Shown: positions 20,767 through 58,858 of the stretch, one piece after another
How positions within the stretch are numbered: the first letter of the stretch is position 1
Layout of the letters: the number at the start of each line of letters is the position of its first letter
NCBI RefSeq assembly: GCF_055900595.2
Contig: NZ_CM148325.1
Length of the DNA stretch: 64,000 bases
Direction: 5' to 3' (one strand)
Translations under genes and position numbers: made by a program
The notes under the pieces: model-generated
What the model saw: the letters and a program-made list of their open reading frames with translations, nothing else
Told to the model about the DNA's origin: nothing
Database searches by the model: none

Positions 20767-21777
20767 TTAGATATGGTTAACGATTTCTTTAATCAGCGGC
20801 GGTCCTTTAAAAATAAAACCAGAATAAATTTGCACCAGTGAGGCCCCCGCAGCAATCTTTTCACGCGCAGCAATAACCGAGTCAATGCCGCCAACACCGA
20901 TGATCGGTAAGCGACCGTTTAATTCCTGTGACAAGCGGCGAATAATTTCTGTGCTTTTTAACTGAAGCGGACGACCACTTAAGCCACCGGTTTGATCACA
21001 ATTTTTCATTCCCTGAACCAGAGAACGATCGAGCGTGGTATTGGTTGCAATAACGCCATCAATATTATGGCGAACTAAACTATCGGCAACCTGGATCAAT
21101 TCTTTTTCAGAAAGATCCGGCGCGATCTTCACTGCGATCGGCACATATTTATGGTGCATCGCTTGCAAATCATTTTGCTTATTTTTAATCGCGGTTAAGA
21201 GATCATCCAGCGCTTCGCCATATTGCAGTGTGCGTAGTCCTGGGGTATTCGGCGATGAAATATTGATGGCGATATATCCCGCATAAGCATAGATTTTTTC
21301 CATACAAATCAGATAGTCATCTTTACCCTGCTCCACCGGCGTATCTTTATTTTTGCCGATGTTAATACCCAGGACGCCATCATAATGGGCTTTTTTTACG
21401 TTCTCTACGAGGTTATCAACGCCAAGATTATTAAAGCCCATACGGTTGATCAAACCTTCGGCATCTACCAGACGAAAGAGACGCGGCTTGTCATTACCTG
21501 GCTGTGGACGTGGCGTGACGGTACCGATCTCGATAGATCCAAACCCCATCGCGCCTAACGCGTCAATGCACTCCCCGTCTTTATCAAGACCGGCTGCCAG
21601 ACCAAGCGGATTTTTAAACGTCAGGCCCATGCAGTTAACAGGTTTCGCAGGCACTTTCTGCCGCACCAGTGCTTCAAACGGCGTTCCGGTAATGCGGCGT
21701 AATTGCTGAAAAGTAAACTCATGAGCGCGCTCTGGATCGAGCTGGAAAAGGGCTTTACGAACGAAGGGGTAGTACAT
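20767..21777 (-). CDS. pyrD: Dihydroorotate dehydrogenase (quinone)
   Basis: ATG at 21777 [38 protein letters not shown]..., 336 aa; ORF track extends 9 codons upstream. Confidence 0.95.
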
Positions 21778-21863
21778 GAACTCTCCTGGATTCCCGGTGT
21801 GCAAACCGGGGGCGTATTATGTGCGAGTTCGGACTAAAAGGGAATTGACCTGTGGCAAAAAAT

Positions 21864-24683: not shown

Positions 24684-24694
24684 GGAACAAAATG

Positions 24695-25486
24695 ATGGCA
24701 ACGCCAGTGAAAAAGTGGTTATTGCGCGTTGCCCCCTGGTTTTTACCGGTGGGCATCGTGGCGGTGTGGCAACTGGCCTCCTCGGTTGGCTGGTTGTCGA
24801 CGCGTATTTTGCCCTCACCGGAAGGGGTGGTGACGGCGTTCTGGTCGCTCTCAGCCAGCGGCGAATTGTGGCAACATCTGGCGATCAGCTCCTGGCGGGC
24901 GCTGATTGGTTTTTCAGTTGGCGGATCGCTGGGCTTGATTCTGGGACTGATTAGCGGGCTGTCGCGCTGGGGAGAACGGCTGCTGGATACCTCAATTCAA
25001 ATGTTGCGCAACGTGCCGCATCTGGCGCTGATCCCACTGGTGATTTTGTGGTTTGGCATTGATGAATCCGCGAAAATCTTTCTGGTGGCGCTCGGCACAC
25101 TATTCCCCATTTATATCAACACCTGGCACGGCATCCGTAATATCGATCGCGGTCTGGTGGAGATGGCGCGTAGCTATGGATTATCCGGCATTCCGCTGTT
25201 TATCCATGTGATCCTGCCTGGTGCCCTGCCCTCAATTATGGTCGGCGTACGTTTTGCGTTGGGCCTGATGTGGCTGACGCTGATTGTTGCCGAAACTATT
25301 TCTGCCAATTCCGGCATTGGTTATCTGGCGATGAATGCACGGGAGTTTTTGCAAACGGATGTGGTGGTAGTCGCCATTATTCTCTACGCCCTGCTCGGCA
25401 AACTTGCTGACGTCAGCGCGCAGCTGTTAGAGCGCCTCTGGCTGCGCTGGAATCCGGCTTATCATTTGAAGGAGGCCACGGTATGA
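24695..25486 (+). CDS. ssuC: Aliphatic sulfonate ABC transporter permease SsuC
   Basis: [27 protein letters not shown]... (263 aa from second ATG; ORF track starts one codon earlier at 24692). Confidence 0.9.
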
Positions 25487-26250
25487 ATACTGCTCGTCTG
25501 AACCAGGGCACACCCTTGTTACTCAATGCAGTAAGCAAACATTACGCGGAAAATATCGTCCTGAACCAACTGGATTTACATATTCCCGCAGGTCAGTTTG
25601 TGGCGGTGGTGGGCCGCAGCGGTGGTGGCAAAAGTACCCTGCTGCGCCTGCTGGCAGGTCTGGAAACGCCAACCGCAGGCGATGTGTTAGCGGGGACCAC
25701 ACCGCTAGCTGAGATTCAGGAAGACACGCGAATGATGTTTCAGGATGCGCGTCTGCTACCGTGGAAATCGGTGATTGATAACGTTGGGCTGGGCCTTAAA
25801 GGCCAGTGGCGCGATGCCGCGCGTCGGGCGCTGGCTGCGGTAGGGCTGGAGAATCGCGCGCGGGAATGGCCTGCTGCACTTTCTGGCGGGCAGAAACAGC
25901 GTGTGGCGCTGGCAAGAGCGTTGATTCATCGACCGGGTTTATTATTGCTTGATGAACCGCTCGGGGCGCTGGACGCCCTGACTCGGCTCGAGATGCAGGA
26001 TTTGATTGTGTCACTTTGGCAGGAGCACGGCTTTACCGTACTGTTGGTGACGCATGATGTGAGCGAAGCGGTAGCAATGGCGGACCGGGTGTTGTTAATT
26101 GAAGAGGGAAAAATTGGTCTGGATTTGACGGTGGATATCCCCCGTCCGCGCCGGTTAGGGTCGGTGAGATTAGCGGAGCTGGAAGCGGAAGTGTTGCAAC
26201 GGGTGATGCAGCGTGGGCACTCTGAACAACCGATTCGGCGTCATGGTTAA
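25483..26250 (+). CDS. ssuB: Aliphatic sulfonate ABC transporter ATP-binding protein SsuB
   Basis: 255-aa ORF with Walker [10 protein letters not shown] and signature LSGGQKQR; start overlaps ssuC stop. Confidence 0.93.
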
Positions 26251-26252
26251 TA

Positions 26253-26452
26253 TGCCGGATGTGGCGCACAAAACCAGCGGTTTCAACGGATTGTAGGCCT
26301 GATAAGACGCGTCAAGCGTCGCATCAGGCATTTGGGCACGGCTGCCGGATGCGGCGTGAACGCCTTATCCAGCCTACAAAACCAGCATTTTCAACGGACT
26401 TGTAGGCCTGATAAGACGCGTCAAGCGTCGCATCCGGCATTTGGGCTCAAAA
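26253..26452. repeat. REP/BIME cluster (several REP units) between ssuB and pepN
   Basis: Near-identical 50-bp units GGA(T/C)TTGTAGGCCTGATAAGACGCGTCAAGCGTCGCATC(A/C)GGCATTTGGGC at 26299-26348 and 26395-26445 plus GCCGGATGCGGCGTGAACGCCTTATCCAGCCTAC; classic REP palindromes. Confidence 0.75.
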
Positions 26453-26455
26453 GTA

Positions 26456-29068
26456 TCAAGCCAGTGCTTTAGTTATCTTCTCGTACAGATCGCCAGAGAG
26501 ATTTTCCAGCCCTTTCAACTGCTCCAGCGCCGCGCGCATTTTCTCCTGACGTTTGGCATCGTAACGCTTCAGGCGAATCAGCGGTTCAATCAGACGTGAA
26601 GCCACCTGCGGGTTACGGCTGTTGAGGTCGGTAAGCATTTCCACCAGGAACTGGTAACCGCTACCATCTTCGGCATGGAACGCTGCCGGGTTGCTGCCCG
26701 CAAACGCGCCAATCAACGAACGAATGCGGTTCGGGTTGCTCATGGTAAATGAGCGATGCTGCAACAGACCACGCACCGTCTCCAGCACATTCGCCGCCGG
26801 GCTGGTGGCTTGCAGGATAAACCATTTATCCATCACCAGACCATCCTGATGCCACTTGTCGTCGTACTCCTGCATCAGCGCGTCACGGCATGGCAGCTGT
26901 GCAGCAACCGCCGCAGAAAGCGCGGCCAGCGCATCGGTCATATTGTTTGCTGCATGGTACTGCTTGCTCACCAGCACGTCAGCCAGATGCGTTTCACCAA
27001 AAGCGAGGAAGCGCAGGCAGGCATTACGCAGAGTGCGTTTTGCAATATCTTCATGCTCAACGCGGTACTCGCTCTGATAATTTGCGTTATAAATAGCCAG
27101 CAGCTCATCCGCCAGTTCAGTCGCCAGAGTACGGGTAAGTGCTTCGCGTACTTCGGCAATAGCAATCGGATCGATGATATCGAACAGCTCCGCCATTTCA
27201 TTGACGGATGGCAGCGTCAGAATTTCTGCCGCCAGTGCCGGGTCAATCTTCTCATCCAGCAGCACCGCGCGGAAAGCATCGGCAACGTGTGCGGGTAAAG
27301 ACAATGGTTGACCTTGCTGATGACGGGCGACGTTCAGTTTGATGTAGGTTGCCAGCAAACTTTGTGCCGCATCCCAGCGGGAGAAATCATTACGCGCATG
27401 GCGCATCAGGAAGGTCAGTTGCTGATCGCTCCACTTATATTCCAGTTTCACTGGCGCAGAGAATTCGCACAGCAGTGCGGGCACCGGCTGGAAGTAGACA
27501 TTATCAAAGACAAAGGTCTGTTCCGCCTGGGTGACGTTCAGCACCGAATTGACCGGATGACCGCCTTTCTGCAACGGGATCACTTTGCCTTCGTTATCAT
27601 ACAGTTCGATGGCAAACGGAATATGCAGCGGCTGTTTTTCTGCCTGATCCGGCGTAGCTGGCGTGCGCTGGCTGATGGTCAGGGTGTACTGCTCAGTTTC
27701 TGGATTGTAGTCGTCTTTGACGGTCACAATCGGCGTACCGGACTGGCTGTACCAACGGCGGAAATGGGAGAGATCGACATTTGACGCATCTTCCATCGCC
27801 TGAACAAAGTCGTCGCAGGTTGCCGCACTGCCATCATGGCGCTCGAAATAGAGCTGCATCCCTTTCTGGAAGTTTTCTTCGCCCAGCAGAGTGTGGATCA
27901 TGCGAATCACTTCCGCGCCCTTCTCATAAACGGTCAGGGTGTAGAAGTTGTTCATTTCAATAACCATATCCGGGCGGATCGGGTGCGCCATCGGGCTGGC
28001 GTCTTCCGCAAACTGCAATCCGCGCATGGTGCGCACGTTGTTGATACGGTTTACCGCGCGGGAACCAAGGTCAGAGCTGAATTCCTGATCGCGGAAGACG
28101 GTTAAACCTTCTTTCAGGCTGAGCTGGAACCAGTCGCGACAGGTCACACGGTTACCGGTCCAGTTGTGGAAATATTCGTGACCAATAACGCGCTCAATAT
28201 CGAGATAATCTTTATCGGTCGCGGTATCGGTGCGCGCCAGTACATACTTAGAGTTAAAGATGTTAAGACCTTTATTCTCCATTGCGCCCATATTGAAGAA
28301 ATCCACCGCGACTATCATATAGATGTCGAGGTCATACTCCAGACCGAAGCGTTCTTCATCCCACTTCATGGAATTTTTCAGCGAGGTCATCGCCCACGGT
28401 GCACGGTCGAGATTACCACGATCAACATACAGCTCCAGCGCCACTTCGCGACCAGAACGCGTGGTGAAGGTGTCGCGCAGTACATCAAAGTCACCTGCCA
28501 CCAGCGCAAACAGGTAGCACGGTTTCGGGAACGGGTCCTGCCATTGTACCCAGTGGCGTCCATTTTCCAGTTCGCCTTGCGCAACGCGGTTACCGTTGGA
28601 AAGCAGGAACGGGTATTTGGTTTTATCGGCAATAATTTTGGTGGTAAAACGCGCCAGCACGTCCGGGCGGTCGAGATAATACGTAATATGGCGGAAACCT
28701 TCGGCTTCACACTGGGTGCAAAGCGCATCGCCTGACTGATAAAGCCCTTCCAGCGCAGTATTCGCCGCTGGGCTAATTTCATTAACGATCTTGAGCGTAA
28801 AACGCTCCGGCAAATTACTGATGACCAGTGCGCCCTCTTCTTCTTTCCAGGCGGTCCACGGCTCATCATTAATATGAACAGAAACCAGTTTAAGATCTTC
28901 GCCATCAAGACGAAGCGGAGCATCTGATGCACCATGACGGACAGCCTGGCTGACCGCGGTAACGACCGTCTTTTGCGCGTCCAGGTCAAAGGTCAAGTCA
29001 ATATCAGTAATCTGGTAATCCGGCGCACGATAATCGTGACGGTATTTGGCTTGTGGCTGTTGAGTCAT
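26456..29068 (-). CDS. pepN: Aminopeptidase N
   Basis: 870-aa ORF MTQQPQAKYRHDYRAPDYQITDIDLTFDLDAQKT...; M1 zinc motif HEYFHNWTG and GAMEN motif present. Confidence 0.95.
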   Translation of the reverse strand: MTQQPQAKYRHDYRAPDYQITDIDLTFDLDAQKTVVTAVSQAVRHGASDAPLRLDGEDLKLVSVHINDEPWTAWKEEEGALVISNLPERFTLKIVNEISPAANTALEGLYQSGDALCTQCEAEGFRHITYYLDRPDVLARFTTKIIADKTKYPFLLSNGNRVAQGELENGRHWVQWQDPFPKPCYLFALVAGDFDVLRDTFTTRSGREVALELYVDRGNLDRAPWAMTSLKNSMKWDEERFGLEYDLDIYMIVAVDFFNMGAMENKGLNIFNSKYVLARTDTATDKDYLDIERVIGHEYFHNWTGNRVTCRDWFQLSLKEGLTVFRDQEFSSDLGSRAVNRINNVRTMRGLQFAEDASPMAHPIRPDMVIEMNNFYTLTVYEKGAEVIRMIHTLLGEENFQKGMQLYFERHDGSAATCDDFVQAMEDASNVDLSHFRRWYSQSGTPIVTVKDDYNPETEQYTLTISQRTPATPDQAEKQPLHIPFAIELYDNEGKVIPLQKGGHPVNSVLNVTQAEQTFVFDNVYFQPVPALLCEFSAPVKLEYKWSDQQLTFLMRHARNDFSRWDAAQSLLATYIKLNVARHQQGQPLSLPAHVADAFRAVLLDEKIDPALAAEILTLPSVNEMAELFDIIDPIAIAEVREALTRTLATELADELLAIYNANYQSEYRVEHEDIAKRTLRNACLRFLAFGETHLADVLVSKQYHAANNMTDALAALSAAVAAQLPCRDALMQEYDDKWHQDGLVMDKWFILQATSPAANVLETVRGLLQHRSFTMSNPNRIRSLIGAFAGSNPAAFHAEDGSGYQFLVEMLTDLNSRNPQVASRLIEPLIRLKRYDAKRQEKMRAALEQLKGLENLSGDLYEKITKALA

Positions 29069-32560: not shown

Positions 32561-32741
32561 GGTAGCGAAACGTTAGTTTGAATGGAAAGATGCCTGCAGA
32601 CACATAAAGACACCAAACTCTCATCAATAGTTCCGTAAATTTTTATTGACAGAACTTATTGACGGCAGTGGCAGGTGTCATAAAAAAACCATGAGGGTAA
32701 TAAATAATGATGAAGCGCAATATTCTGGCAGTGATCGTCCC

Positions 32742-32750
32742 TGCTCTGTT
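32742..32750. repeat. IS10 target-site duplication, left copy (TGCTCTGTT)
   Basis: 9-bp direct repeat identical to 34080-34088 and immediately flanking the IS10 termini; 9 bp is the IS10/Tn10 TSD length. Confidence 0.85.
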
Positions 32751-32796
32751 CTGATGAATCCCCTAATGATTTTGGTAAAAATCATTAAGTTAAGGT

Positions 32797-32865
32797 GGAT
32801 ACACATCTTGTCATATGATCAAATGGTTTCGCCAAAAATCAATAATCAGACAACAAAATGTGCGA
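32797..32865 (-). ncRNA. IS10 antisense RNA-OUT (pOUT transcript), predicted position
   Basis: Position inferred from established IS10 organisation (RNA-OUT ~69 nt, from about bp 115 outward to bp 47, overlapping the transposase start at bp 108, which here is 32858); not independently verified by folding. Confidence 0.45.
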
Positions 32866-34066
32866 ACTCGATATTTTACACGACTCTCTTTACCAATTCT
32901 GCCCCGAATTACACTTAAAACGACTCAACAGCTTAACGTTGGCTTGCCACGCCTTACTTGACTGTAAAACTCTCACTCTTACCGAACTTGGCCGTAACCT
33001 GCCAACCAAAGCGAGAACAAAACATAACATCAAACGAATCGACCGATTGTTAGGTAATCGTCACCTCCACAAAGAGCGACTCGCTGTATACCGTTGGCAT
33101 GCTAGCTTTATCTGTTCGGGCAATACGATGCCCATTGTACTTGTTGACTGGTCTGATATCCGTGAGCAAAAACGGCTTATGGTATTGCGAGCTTCAGTCG
33201 CACTACACGGTCGTTCTGTTACTCTTTATGAGAAAGCGTTCCCGCTTTCAGAGCAATGTTCAAAGAAAGCTCATGACCAATTTCTAGCCGACCTTGCGAG
33301 CATTCTACCGAGTAACACCACACCGCTCATTGTCAGTGATGCTGGCTTTAAAGTGCCATGGTATAAATCCGTTGAGAAGCTGGGTTGGTACTGGTTAAGT
33401 CGAGTAAGAGGAAAAGTACAATATGCAGACCTAGGAGCGGAAAACTGGAAACCTATCAGCAACTTACATGATATGTCATCTAGTCACTCAAAGACTTTAG
33501 GCTATAAGAGGCTGACTAAAAGCAATCCAATCTCATGCCAAATTCTATTGTATAAATCTCGCTCTAAAGGCCGAAAAAATCAGCGCTCGACACGGACTCA
33601 TTGTCACCACCCGTCACCTAAAATCTACTCAGCGTCGGCAAAGGAGCCATGGATTCTAGCAACTAACTTACCTGTTGAAATTCGAACACCCAAACAACTT
33701 GTTAATATCTATTCGAAGCGAATGCAGATTGAAGAAACCTTCCGAGACTTGAAAAGTCCTGCCTACGGACTAGGCCTACGCCATAGCCGAACGAGCAGCT
33801 CAGAGCGTTTTGATATCATGCTGCTAATCGCCCTGATGCTTCAACTAACATGTTGGCTTGCGGGCGTTCATGCTCAGAAACAAGGTTGGGACAAGCACTT
33901 CCAGGCTAACACAGTCAGAAATCGAAACGTACTCTCAACAGTTCGCTTAGGCATGGAAGTTTTGCGGCATTCTGGCTACACAATAACAAGGGAAGACTCA
34001 CTCGTGGCTGCAACCCTGCTTACTCAAAATCTATTCACACATGGTTACGTTTTGGGGAAATTATGA
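32858..34066 (+). CDS. IS10 transposase
   Basis: 402-aa [84 protein letters not shown]...; ATG at IS10 bp 108 as in canonical IS10. Confidence 0.95.
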
Positions 34067-34079
34067 GGGGATCTCTCAG

Positions 34080-34088
34080 TGCTCTGTT
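34080..34088. repeat. IS10 target-site duplication, right copy (TGCTCTGTT)
   Basis: Identical to 32742-32750; continues in frame into ompF codons [10 protein letters not shown]. Confidence 0.85.
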
Positions 34089-35160
34089 AGTAGCAGGTAC
34101 TGCAAACGCTGCAGAAATTTATAACAAAGATGGCAACAAAGTAGATCTGTACGGTAAAGCTGTCGGTCTGCATTATTTCTCCAAGGGTAACGGTGAAAAC
34201 AGTTACGGTGGCAATGGCGACATGACCTATGCCCGTCTTGGTTTTAAAGGGGAAACTCAAATCAATTCCGATCTGACCGGTTATGGTCAGTGGGAATATA
34301 ACTTCCAGGGTAACAACTCTGAAGGCGCTGACGCTCAAACTGGTAACAAAACCCGTCTGGCATTCGCGGGTCTTAAATACGCTGACGTTGGTTCTTTCGA
34401 TTACGGCCGTAACTACGGTGTGGTTTATGATGCACTGGGTTACACCGATATGCTGCCAGAATTTGGTGGTGACACGGCATACAGCGATGACTTCTTCGTT
34501 GGTCGTGTTGGCGGCGTTGCTACCTATCGTAACTCCAACTTCTTTGGTCTGGTTGATGGCCTGAACTTCGCTGTTCAGTACCTGGGTAAAAACGAGCGTG
34601 ACACTGCACGCCGCTCTAACGGCGACGGTGTTGGCGGTTCTATCAGCTACGAATACGAAGGCTTTGGTATCGTTGGTGCTTATGGCGCCGCTGACCGTAC
34701 CAACCTGCAAGAAGCTCAACCTCTTGGCAACGGTAAAAAAGCTGAACAGTGGGCTACTGGTCTGAAGTATGACGCGAACAACATCTACCTGGCAGCGAAC
34801 TACGGTGAAACCCGTAACGCTACGCCGATCACTAATAAATTTACAAACATCAGCGGCTTCGCCAACAAAACGCAAGATGTTCTGTTAGTTGCGCAATACC
34901 AGTTCGATTTCGGTCTGCGTCCGTCCATCGCTTACACCAAATCTAAAGCGAAAGACGTAGAAGGTATCGGTGATGTTGATCTGGTGAACTACTTTGAAGT
35001 GGGCGCAACCTACTACTTCAACAAAAACATGTCCACCTATGTTGACTACATCATCAACCAGATCGATTCTGACAACAAACTGGGCGTAGGTTCAGACGAC
35101 ACCGTTGCTGTGGGTATCGTTTACCAGTTCTAATAGCACACCTCTTTGTTAAATGCCGAA

Positions 35161-57184: not shown

Positions 57185-58858
57185 TTACTCGCCTTTAGCT
57201 GCTTTGAAAGCTTCAGCCATTGCGTTGTTGGAGAAGTTTGCATCTTCCTGTTTGTTAACAGTTGCGATTGCATCTTTCTCATCAGCTTCGTCTTTCGCAC
57301 GAACAGACAGGCTGATTGCGCGGTTCTTACGATCAACGCCGGTGAATTTAGCTTCAACTTCGTCGCCAACGCTCAGAACCAGGGTAGCGTCTTCAACGCG
57401 GTCACGGGATGCTTCAGAAGCACGCAGGTAACCTTCAACGCCGTCAGCCAGTTCTACGGTTGCGCCTTTAGCGTCAACTGCAGTTACTTTACCGGTTACG
57501 ATAGCGCCTTTCTTGTTCAGAGCAACCCAGTTGTTGAACGGATCTTCTGCGAGCTGTTTAACGCCCAGGGAGATACGTTCACGTTCTGCGTCAACCTGCA
57601 GAACAACTGCAGCGATTTCGTCGCCTTTTTTGTATTCACGAACTGCTTCTTCGCCTGCAACGTTCCAGGAGATGTCAGACAGGTGAACCAGGCCGTCGAT
57701 GCCGCCGTCCAGGCCGATGAAGATACCGAAGTCAGTGATAGACTTGATTTTACCTTCAACACGGTCACCCTTGTTGTGGGTTTCCGCGAACTGCTGCCAC
57801 GGGTTAGCTTTACACTGTTTCAGACCCAGGGAGATACGACGACGTTCTTCGTCGATATCCAGAACCATAACTTCCACTACATCGCCAACGTTAACAACTT
57901 TGGACGGGTGGATGTTTTTGTTGGTCCAATCCATTTCGGAAACGTGTACCAGGCCTTCAACGCCTTCTTCGATTTCAACGAAGCAGCCGTAGTCGGTCAG
58001 GTTGGTCACGCGACCAGTCAGTTTGGTACCTTCCGGATAACGTTTAGCAATAGCTACCCACGGATCTTCGCCCAGCTGTTTCAGGCCCAGGGATACACGG
58101 GTACGTTCGCGGTCGAACTTCAGCACTTTAACAGTGATTTCGTCGCCCACGTTGACGATTTCGCTCGGATGCTTAACGCGTTTCCAGGCCATATCAGTGA
58201 TGTGCAGCAGGCCGTCAACGCCGCCCAGATCAACGAATGCACCGTAGTCAGTGAGGTTCTTAACGATACCTTTAACTTCCATGCCTTCCTGCAGGTTTTC
58301 CAGCAGCTGATCGCGCTCTGCGCTGTTTTCGGATTCGATAACGGCACGACGAGAAACAACAACGTTGTTGCGCTTCTGATCCAGCTTGATTACTTTGAAT
58401 TCAAGCTCTTTGCCTTCCAGGTGCAGAGTGTCACGCACCGGACGAACGTCTACCAGAGAACCTGGCAGGAACGCACGAATACCGTTCAGCTCAACAGTGA
58501 AGCCGCCCTTAACTTTGCCGTTGATAACACCGGTAACAGTTTCAGCATCTTCGTAAGCTTTTTCCAGCGTGATCCAGGCTTCGTGACGTTTAGCTTTCTC
58601 ACGGGACAGCAGAGTTTCACCGAAGCCGTCTTCTACTGCGTCCAGAGCAACGTCAACTTCGTCACCTACCTGGATTTCCAGCTCGCCCTGGGCGTTTTTG
58701 AACTGCTCAGCCGGGATGGCGGACTCAGATTTCAGACCAGCGTCAACCAGTACTACGTCTTTGTCGATAGCAACAACAACGCCACGAACGATAGAACCCG
58801 GGCGGGTTTCGATTTCTTTTAAGGACTCTTCAAAGAGTTGAGCAAAAGATTCAGTCAT
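57185..58858 (-). CDS. rpsA: 30S ribosomal protein S1
   Basis: 557-aa [56 protein letters not shown]...; six S1 repeats. Confidence 0.96.

Follow-up and report, generated by a model that had tools for sequence, protein, structure and literature searches.

REP/BIME clusters are among the best-catalogued repeats of E. coli. REPs carry a conserved GTAG 5′ of the hairpin foot (PMC3333891), and a BIME-2, as defined by Ton-Hoang et al. (PMC3333891), combines y and z2 REPs through a short linker in tandem copies, the number of which varies between strains. The closest described systems to the locus reported here are REP325, between yjdM and yjdN, and the BIME-2 between yjjV and yjjW of K-12. REP325 acts as a partly Rho-dependent terminator and as a stabiliser of the upstream message (bioRxiv 10.64898/2026.03.23.713779). 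According to the same preprint, where a REP lies between two convergent genes, both tend to be more highly expressed, and ~40% of such REPs overlap predicted bidirectional terminators; it also describes REP effects as context-dependent and terminal REPs as not generally tied to longer mRNA half-lives.

We analysed a 64-kb stretch of DNA, referred to below as the window, in which ssuB and pepN converge on a gap that carries a BIME-2-type cluster. Like REP325 and the yjjV–yjjW element, this cluster consists of alternating Y and Z2 REPs arranged in tandem at an extragenic 3′ site, and it shares with both a 12-nt head-to-head linker and a copy number that varies between strains. REP325 comprises 6 units, whereas the ssuB–pepN BIME comprises ~1.8 units, the first Y being half-deleted. 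The tail-to-tail linker measures 16 nt in yjjV–yjjW but 24 nt in ssuB–pepN; the sequence of the latter is not shared with yjjV–yjjW and is absent elsewhere in the genome, a locus-specific trait by which the cluster could be classed as an atypical BIME. REPINs, hairpin-forming REP doublets mobilised by RAYT/TnpA-REP, are similar in that the cluster, too, has two inverted REPs with outward GTAG/CTAC ends, Y and the second Z2 being predicted to pair as a long hairpin; compared with a REPIN insertion, however, the ssuB–pepN cluster looks like a local tandem amplification and not like a fresh insertion. No tnpA-REP (RAYT) gene was found in the 64-kb window; the RAYT locus is single-copy in E. coli and lies elsewhere in the genome (PMC3333891). 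The element is of an already known kind, a standard Y/Z2 BIME-2-type cluster, and the original prediction was right to call it ordinary for E. coli.

Composition and identity of the cluster

The locus is framed by three genes, of which ssuC (24692–25486, plus strand) was assigned by an NCBIfam equivalog model, ssuB, the final gene of the ssuEADCB operon (25483–26250, plus strand), by NCBIfam NF008420 with 497 bits, and pepN, encoding aminopeptidase N and convergent with ssuB (26456–29068, minus strand), by NCBIfam TIGR02414 with 1257 bits. The stop codons of ssuB and pepN face each other across a gap of 205 bp (26251–26455), so that the ORF coordinates and the NCBIfam models agree with the convergent 205-bp gap that had been proposed. 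Every REP unit lies within this interval between the two stop codons and is therefore extragenic. Small ORFs that run over the REPs (26259–26405 and 26332–26472 on the plus strand, 26170–26331 on the minus strand) were taken as repeat artefacts.

Along the gap the elements follow one another in the order half Y, Z2, Y and Z2, with alternating strands. The half Y REP (26253–26267) begins 3 nt past the ssuB stop and retains the head arm TGCCGGATGTGGCGC, while the loop and the 3′ arm are lost (19 nt relative to a full Y); it shows 1 mismatch to the REP head pattern, aligns with the head of the full Y up to a 19-nt gap, and is found in all variants of the BIME form that we examined. It is followed by a first copy of the tail-to-tail linker, ACAAAACCAGCGGTTTCAACGGATT (26268–26292, 25 nt), which a repeat finder identified as a direct repeat of 26376–26401 (family D4, 91%). 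Z2 copy 1 (26293–26330, plus strand read GTAG-first) has a perfect outer stem and lies within the Rfam naRNA4 alignment. The head-to-head short linker of the S type, TTTGGGCACGGC (26331–26342), comprises 12 nt, a length and position that match those of the K-12 yjjV–yjjW BIME and of the Rfam consensus. The full Y REP (26343–26377, minus strand read GTAG-first) is inverted relative to the Z2 copies and carries a single change from the consensus, GGCTGG for GGCCGG, which gives rise to a G–U pair. Linker copy 2, AAAACCAGCATTTTCAACGGACTT (26378–26401, 24 nt), leads into Z2 copy 2 (26402–26439, plus strand) with the loop GTCAA at 26420–26424; compared with copy 1, an A to C change at 26435 introduces a stem mismatch. 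The remaining 16 nt up to the pepN stop, TTTGGGCTCAAAAGTA (26440–26455), repeat the start of the S linker in their first 7 nt and in this way close the second tandem unit. The two tandem units, 90 nt (26253–26342) and 109 nt (26343–26451) in length, align end to end, interrupted only by a 1-nt indel and by the 19 nt that the first Y has lost.

Three complete palindromes (Z2, Y and Z2) together with the half Y are thus present in the gap, in line with the coordinates and the at least three REP palindromes that had been predicted. Over the stretches 26291–26337 and 26400–26446, the Z2 copies agree at 46 of 47 positions; on extension, the best 49-mers show 2 differences and the best 50-mers 3. 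The near-identity of two 50-mers claimed in the original prediction holds, but the two differences given there do not, as the best 50-mers differ at three positions.

Membership of the REP family was examined with Rfam model RF02564 (naRNA4), which was built from the 77-nt Y–linker–Z2 units of REP325. The Y–S–Z2 unit at 26296–26374 on the minus strand matches this model with 82.2 bits, the gathering score being 59.5, and the match spans the full model (positions 1–77) with both hairpins intact; its E-value is 2e-15 in the local search and 4e-13 when the whole window is scanned. On the plus strand the score of 52.0 bits remains under the threshold of 59.5. The RF02564 match is one of only three gathering-level Rfam matches across the 64-kb window. 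The whole-window scan also showed a PyrD leader, RF02373 (98.1 bits, 21772–21845, minus strand). The REP head pattern GCCKGATGCGRCGY occurs with at most 2 mismatches 13 times in the window, compared with 4.75 ± 2.0 times in shuffled sequences, none of which reached 13; the window holds three exact matches, all of them inside the ssuB–pepN gap. Probes for Y and Z2 REPs align with 0–2 errors to the K-12 yjjV–yjjW BIME and with 1–3 errors to the units described here. GTAG feet are found at 26293 and 26402 on the plus strand, and CTAC at 26374–26377 corresponds to GTAG on the minus strand. A 2×2 internal loop (AA/GC) is present in every predicted hairpin of the three complete units. The original prediction was open to failure if the units did not align with the REP consensus; they do align, with the 82.2 bits given above.

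Alternation of y and z2, a 12-nt S linker and tandem copies that vary by strain are all found at this locus, and we assign the cluster to the BIME-2 type because this combination of y and z2 REPs, short linker and variable tandem copies fits the definition of Ton-Hoang et al. By comparison with REP probes, a Z1 REP is absent from the gap. A 40-nt probe across linker copy 2 was matched in 2,249 of 5,426 genomes, at a median of 2 places in each and at this locus only. Since the probe matches only the two copies at this locus, the tail-to-tail linker is, as judged from sequence comparison, a unique local sequence that was duplicated together with the REPs and not a dispersed motif.

Two forms of the ssuB–pepN junction

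We surveyed 5,426 complete E. coli genomes and distinguished two forms of the locus. The BIME form, recognised by its specific linker, occurs in 2,249 genomes (41%) and is essentially full-length in 2,060 of them, and the K-12-type form occurs in 3,166 (58%), including K-12 and O157:H7. In K-12 MG1655 the gap measures 42 bp (NC_000913.3, 993235–993276), and the other K-12-type gaps that we inspected (L007–L011) are likewise bidirectional terminator hairpins of 41–42 bp. The MG1655 gap contains a non-REP hairpin, CCGAATGGCGGC-GCTA-TTGCCGCCATTCGG, of −25 kcal/mol, with a 13-bp stem followed by TTATTTA, and a second small terminator in the other direction; owing to the T-rich tails of the hairpin, a pattern scan calls terminators in both directions. 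The two forms resemble each other in that a stable GC-rich hairpin occupies the same gap between convergent genes. The K-12-type terminator differs from the BIME in that it has no GTAG and no internal mismatch, carries T-rich tails and measures 42 bp instead of 205 bp, and it is tied to a different C-terminus of SsuB. In K-12, SsuB ends in ...QRGESETRLRKQG* (GESETRLRKQG), whereas the last ten codons of the BIME form are different and end in EQPIRRHG. A K-12-type SsuB of 276 aa (P0022) was also observed that has lost its stop, reads through the terminator hairpin and ends in ...RKQGVNSPNGGAIAAIRLFIKPVLW.

The last 10 codons of ssuB (26218–26247) and its stop fall within the polymorphic block. 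Alignments by blastn to K-12-type alleles end after 26226 (query position 276 of 300), and by eye the sequences diverge from ~26217; the variable block consequently extends from ~26217–26227 to 26455, and the flanks on both sides are not specific for either form. Neither form follows the ssuB backbone: through ssuB, strain 98228 shares 98% identity with the window and yet carries the terminator form, and strains of just 92–93% identity carry the BIME form. One could regard the junction as an old two-state polymorphism at intermediate frequency (~41% versus 58%), uncoupled from the ssuB haplotype and perhaps kept by selection on expression of the ssu operon and/or pepN, a proposal that we consider improbable. 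If it were true, the natural series of forms (0, 1, 2 and ~2.4 units, with and without IS1397) would provide a test of REPs at convergent 3′ ends. That one and the same gap is filled by a REP cluster in some strains and by a textbook bidirectional terminator in others likewise offers a possible natural experiment for the terminator/stabiliser model. REP catalogues based on K-12 miss the ssuB–pepN BIME because the K-12 reference does not carry it, and curated REP/RIP features are absent from the RefSeq annotation of K-12 NC_000913.3 that we checked.

Outgroup loci were obtained by protein search and contig look-ups. A contig scan with SsuB returned one close relative, from Citrobacter werkmanii, the rest being generic ABC-transporter motifs. 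The SsuB tails of Citrobacter, Lelliottia, Enterobacter, Trabulsiella and Leclercia mostly read ...R(R/K/L)HG, the Citrobacter tail EQPIRRHG being exactly that of the BIME form, and a K-12-like tail was found in none of the outgroup tails examined. Two Citrobacter loci have a Y-type REP at the equivalent spot in the same orientation, and the flank after this REP shows a modest resemblance to the E. coli linker (shuffle p ~0.007–0.1). In Trabulsiella and in an Enterobacter/Lelliottia locus we found plain terminators instead of REPs. Because the outgroups share the tail of the BIME form and Citrobacter has a Y REP at this position, the BIME haplotype looks like the older E. coli state, from which the K-12 terminator form would be derived, judging from a few outgroup loci.

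Within the BIME form, gap sizes of 96, 194, 205/206 and 249 bp were observed. A gap of 205/206 bp corresponds to two units and one of 96 bp, in strain VE-T9, to one unit, and the 194-bp gap has lost the 3′ arm of its last Z2. The 249-bp gap (~2.4 units), found in strain E700025 (L013), is the size after removal of IS1397 and contains an extra degenerate Y-like unit of ~44 bp, GCCGGATGCGCGTAAACGCCTTATCAGG, which follows the first Z2 and precedes the full Y. The comparison of REP copy number across strains that had been recommended alongside the original prediction was informative, revealing gaps between 96 and 249 bp and, in addition, a form that is not a BIME. Strain variation in BIME copy number as such is already published.

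IS1397 inserts specifically into REPs (PMC1525189; PMC3333891). At the ssuB–pepN locus this element of 1,432 bp interrupts the loop of the last Z2; both orientations occur, the target duplications are GTCA and TCA, and its junctions are found in 156 and 53 genomes (roughly 200 in total). The opposite orientations and the different target duplications show that these are two independent insertions. The suggestion that REP clusters are IS insertion targets is thereby borne out directly at the last Z2 of this BIME in ~200 genomes. What is added to existing knowledge is that the locus has two forms, that its copy number forms a series and that IS1397 recurs in it; these findings are useful context and not surprising. 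Separately, in DH5alpha (NZ_CP045741.1, 1308203–1308290) and at similar places in other strains (H176–H180), we noticed an unannotated stretch of ~88 bp with 90–92% identity to a Z2 arm joined to ~65 nt from the start of an IS1397 end. These strains have no IS1397 annotated there, and the stretch may be a remnant of an IS1397 end or a small derivative within a REP.

Folding and possible roles at the shared 3′ end

Predicted as RNA, Z2 copy 1 folds with −21.8 kcal/mol, the Y REP with −18.7 kcal/mol on the minus and −15.1 kcal/mol on the plus strand, and Z2 copy 2 with −17.1 kcal/mol. The three complete units of 35–38 nt therefore span −15 to −22 kcal/mol, their z-scores lying between −3.2 and −6.8, and the half Y REP is unstructured (fold z +0.39). 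The gap as a whole is far more stable than its shuffled sequences, at −107.9 kcal/mol for the plus strand (z −6.7) and −101.7 kcal/mol for the minus strand (z −7.8), and a single long hairpin of Y with the second Z2 is predicted. Between 26000 and 26700 of the BIME form, a pattern search for intrinsic terminators, consisting of a GC-rich hairpin and a U-run, returned 0 sites, and a sigma-70 promoter pattern was likewise found nowhere in 26000–26700. Among the few stem substitutions seen across strains, changes such as those in L004 break pairs, and compensatory changes that would give covariation support were not found.

Very likely, the cluster is a BIME-2-type element in the shared 3′ region of ssuEADCB and pepN that would act as a dispensable 3′-end hairpin block and weak terminator and that would have originated by duplication. 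A gap that already held a Y REP, as in Citrobacter, would have acquired a Z2 REP; tandem duplication of a 109-bp unit, composed of Y, linker, Z2 and short linker, would have followed, and the first Y would afterwards have lost 19 nt. Transcription of either gene would give rise to separate REP RNA hairpins, with −15 to −22 kcal/mol for every one of them, or to one long hairpin of Y and Z2, which would obstruct 3′-to-5′ exonucleases and serve as weak, partly Rho-dependent terminators for both the ssuB and the pepN transcript. In the BIME form the REP hairpins would in this way replace the canonical bidirectional intrinsic terminator that K-12-type strains have in the same gap. The element is dispensable, variable within the species and a preferred landing site of IS1397. 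Because no intrinsic-terminator pattern was found for either gene, the REP hairpins are the only candidate 3′-end structures; since they also fold strongly and REP325 provides a precedent, we favour a modest bidirectional 3′-end block or weak terminator. Among the functions that the original prediction had listed, we infer mRNA stabilisation to be the most plausible, and a role as gyrase site would fit the BIME-2 type.

Any function of the BIME is weak or redundant, because 58% of genomes are without the element, REPs are tolerated in half-deleted form and IS1397 disrupts the last REP in ~200 genomes. The same three observations, together with the gain and loss of units between 96 and 249 bp and a literature proposal of TnpA-REP-mediated spread followed by local amplification (PMC3333891), would be expected of selfish or neutral repeat DNA, which leaves the expression of ssu and pepN unchanged and persists by REP/RAYT-type propagation, local duplication and drift. 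We consider this account possible although somewhat doubtful: for neither gene is any terminator other than the REP hairpins detectable, which leaves these as the only candidate 3′-end structures, and REPs at convergent pairs go along with higher expression genome-wide; moreover, it overlaps with the hairpin-block explanation, from which it differs in effect size only. A translational role appears very unlikely. Liang, Rudd and Deutscher reportedly described in 2015 that a REP hairpin within ~15 nt of a stop codon leads to ribosome stalling and tmRNA action, and control of this kind could be envisaged here as the half Y starts 3 nt past the ssuB stop and the stem of the last Z2 lies 16–17 nt from the pepN stop. 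However, with no fold in the half Y (z +0.39), a stable hairpin is first encountered ~46 nt past the ssuB stop, and the 16–17 nt separating the pepN stop from its nearest stem are just beyond the 15-nt limit.

Local DNA organisation through IHF has to be weighed as well, as an IHF site was part of the original prediction: the cluster would then be a BIME-1/RIP-type element with a linker that binds IHF. Linker copy 1 does contain TTCAACGGATTG, one mismatch away from the IHF core consensus WATCAANNNNTTR, but a match of this quality to such a short consensus is expected by chance. Both partners are Z2 and no Z1 REP is present, the 24–25-nt linker is unique to the locus and does not represent the conserved L motif as defined in PMC3333891, and the 1-nt insertion in linker copy 2 breaks the spacing. 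With neither a Z1 REP nor a demonstrable BIME-1 L motif, and with a linker confined to this locus, the claim of an IHF site is unsupported and this reading is highly improbable. The minus-strand match to RF02564 beyond its gathering score raises the further option of a nucleoid-associated sRNA resembling naRNA4, which would bind HU, bridge REP cruciforms and condense the chromosome, a role that has been proposed for the REP325 units by Qian et al. 2015 (PMC4550694). The resemblance to naRNA4 (CssrE) consists in the covariance-model match; RF02564 is a plain Y–S–Z2 BIME-2 unit, and any Y–S–Z2 unit matches it because the model itself is one such unit. As, in addition, no sigma-70 promoter pattern was found in 26000–26700 and the nucleoid-condensing role of the founding member has been disputed by Harris et al. 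(bioRxiv 10.64898/2026.03.23.713779), and with the locus missing from 58% of strains, we regard an sRNA of this type as extremely unlikely.

Other repeats and an IS10 insertion in the window

The original prediction had named the REP cluster as the only multi-copy repeat in the window besides the target duplication of IS10. This is nearly correct, except that there is one other notable direct-repeat family at 57554–58147. It consists of three direct repeats with a period of 261 nt and 71–72% identity and is the only other sizeable direct-repeat family of the window; from gene order, we take these to be the repeats that encode the S1 domains of rpsA.

IS10 itself (~32751–34078) is located inside the signal-peptide coding region of ompF (32708–35133). 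Its transposase ORF extends from 32858 to 34066, RNA-OUT is matched by Rfam at 32796–32865, and the 9-bp target duplication TGCTCTGTT is found at 32742–32750 and 34079–34087. The ORF downstream of IS10 corresponds to OmpF residues 12–362 (764 bits), and the strain probably lacks a functional OmpF porin.
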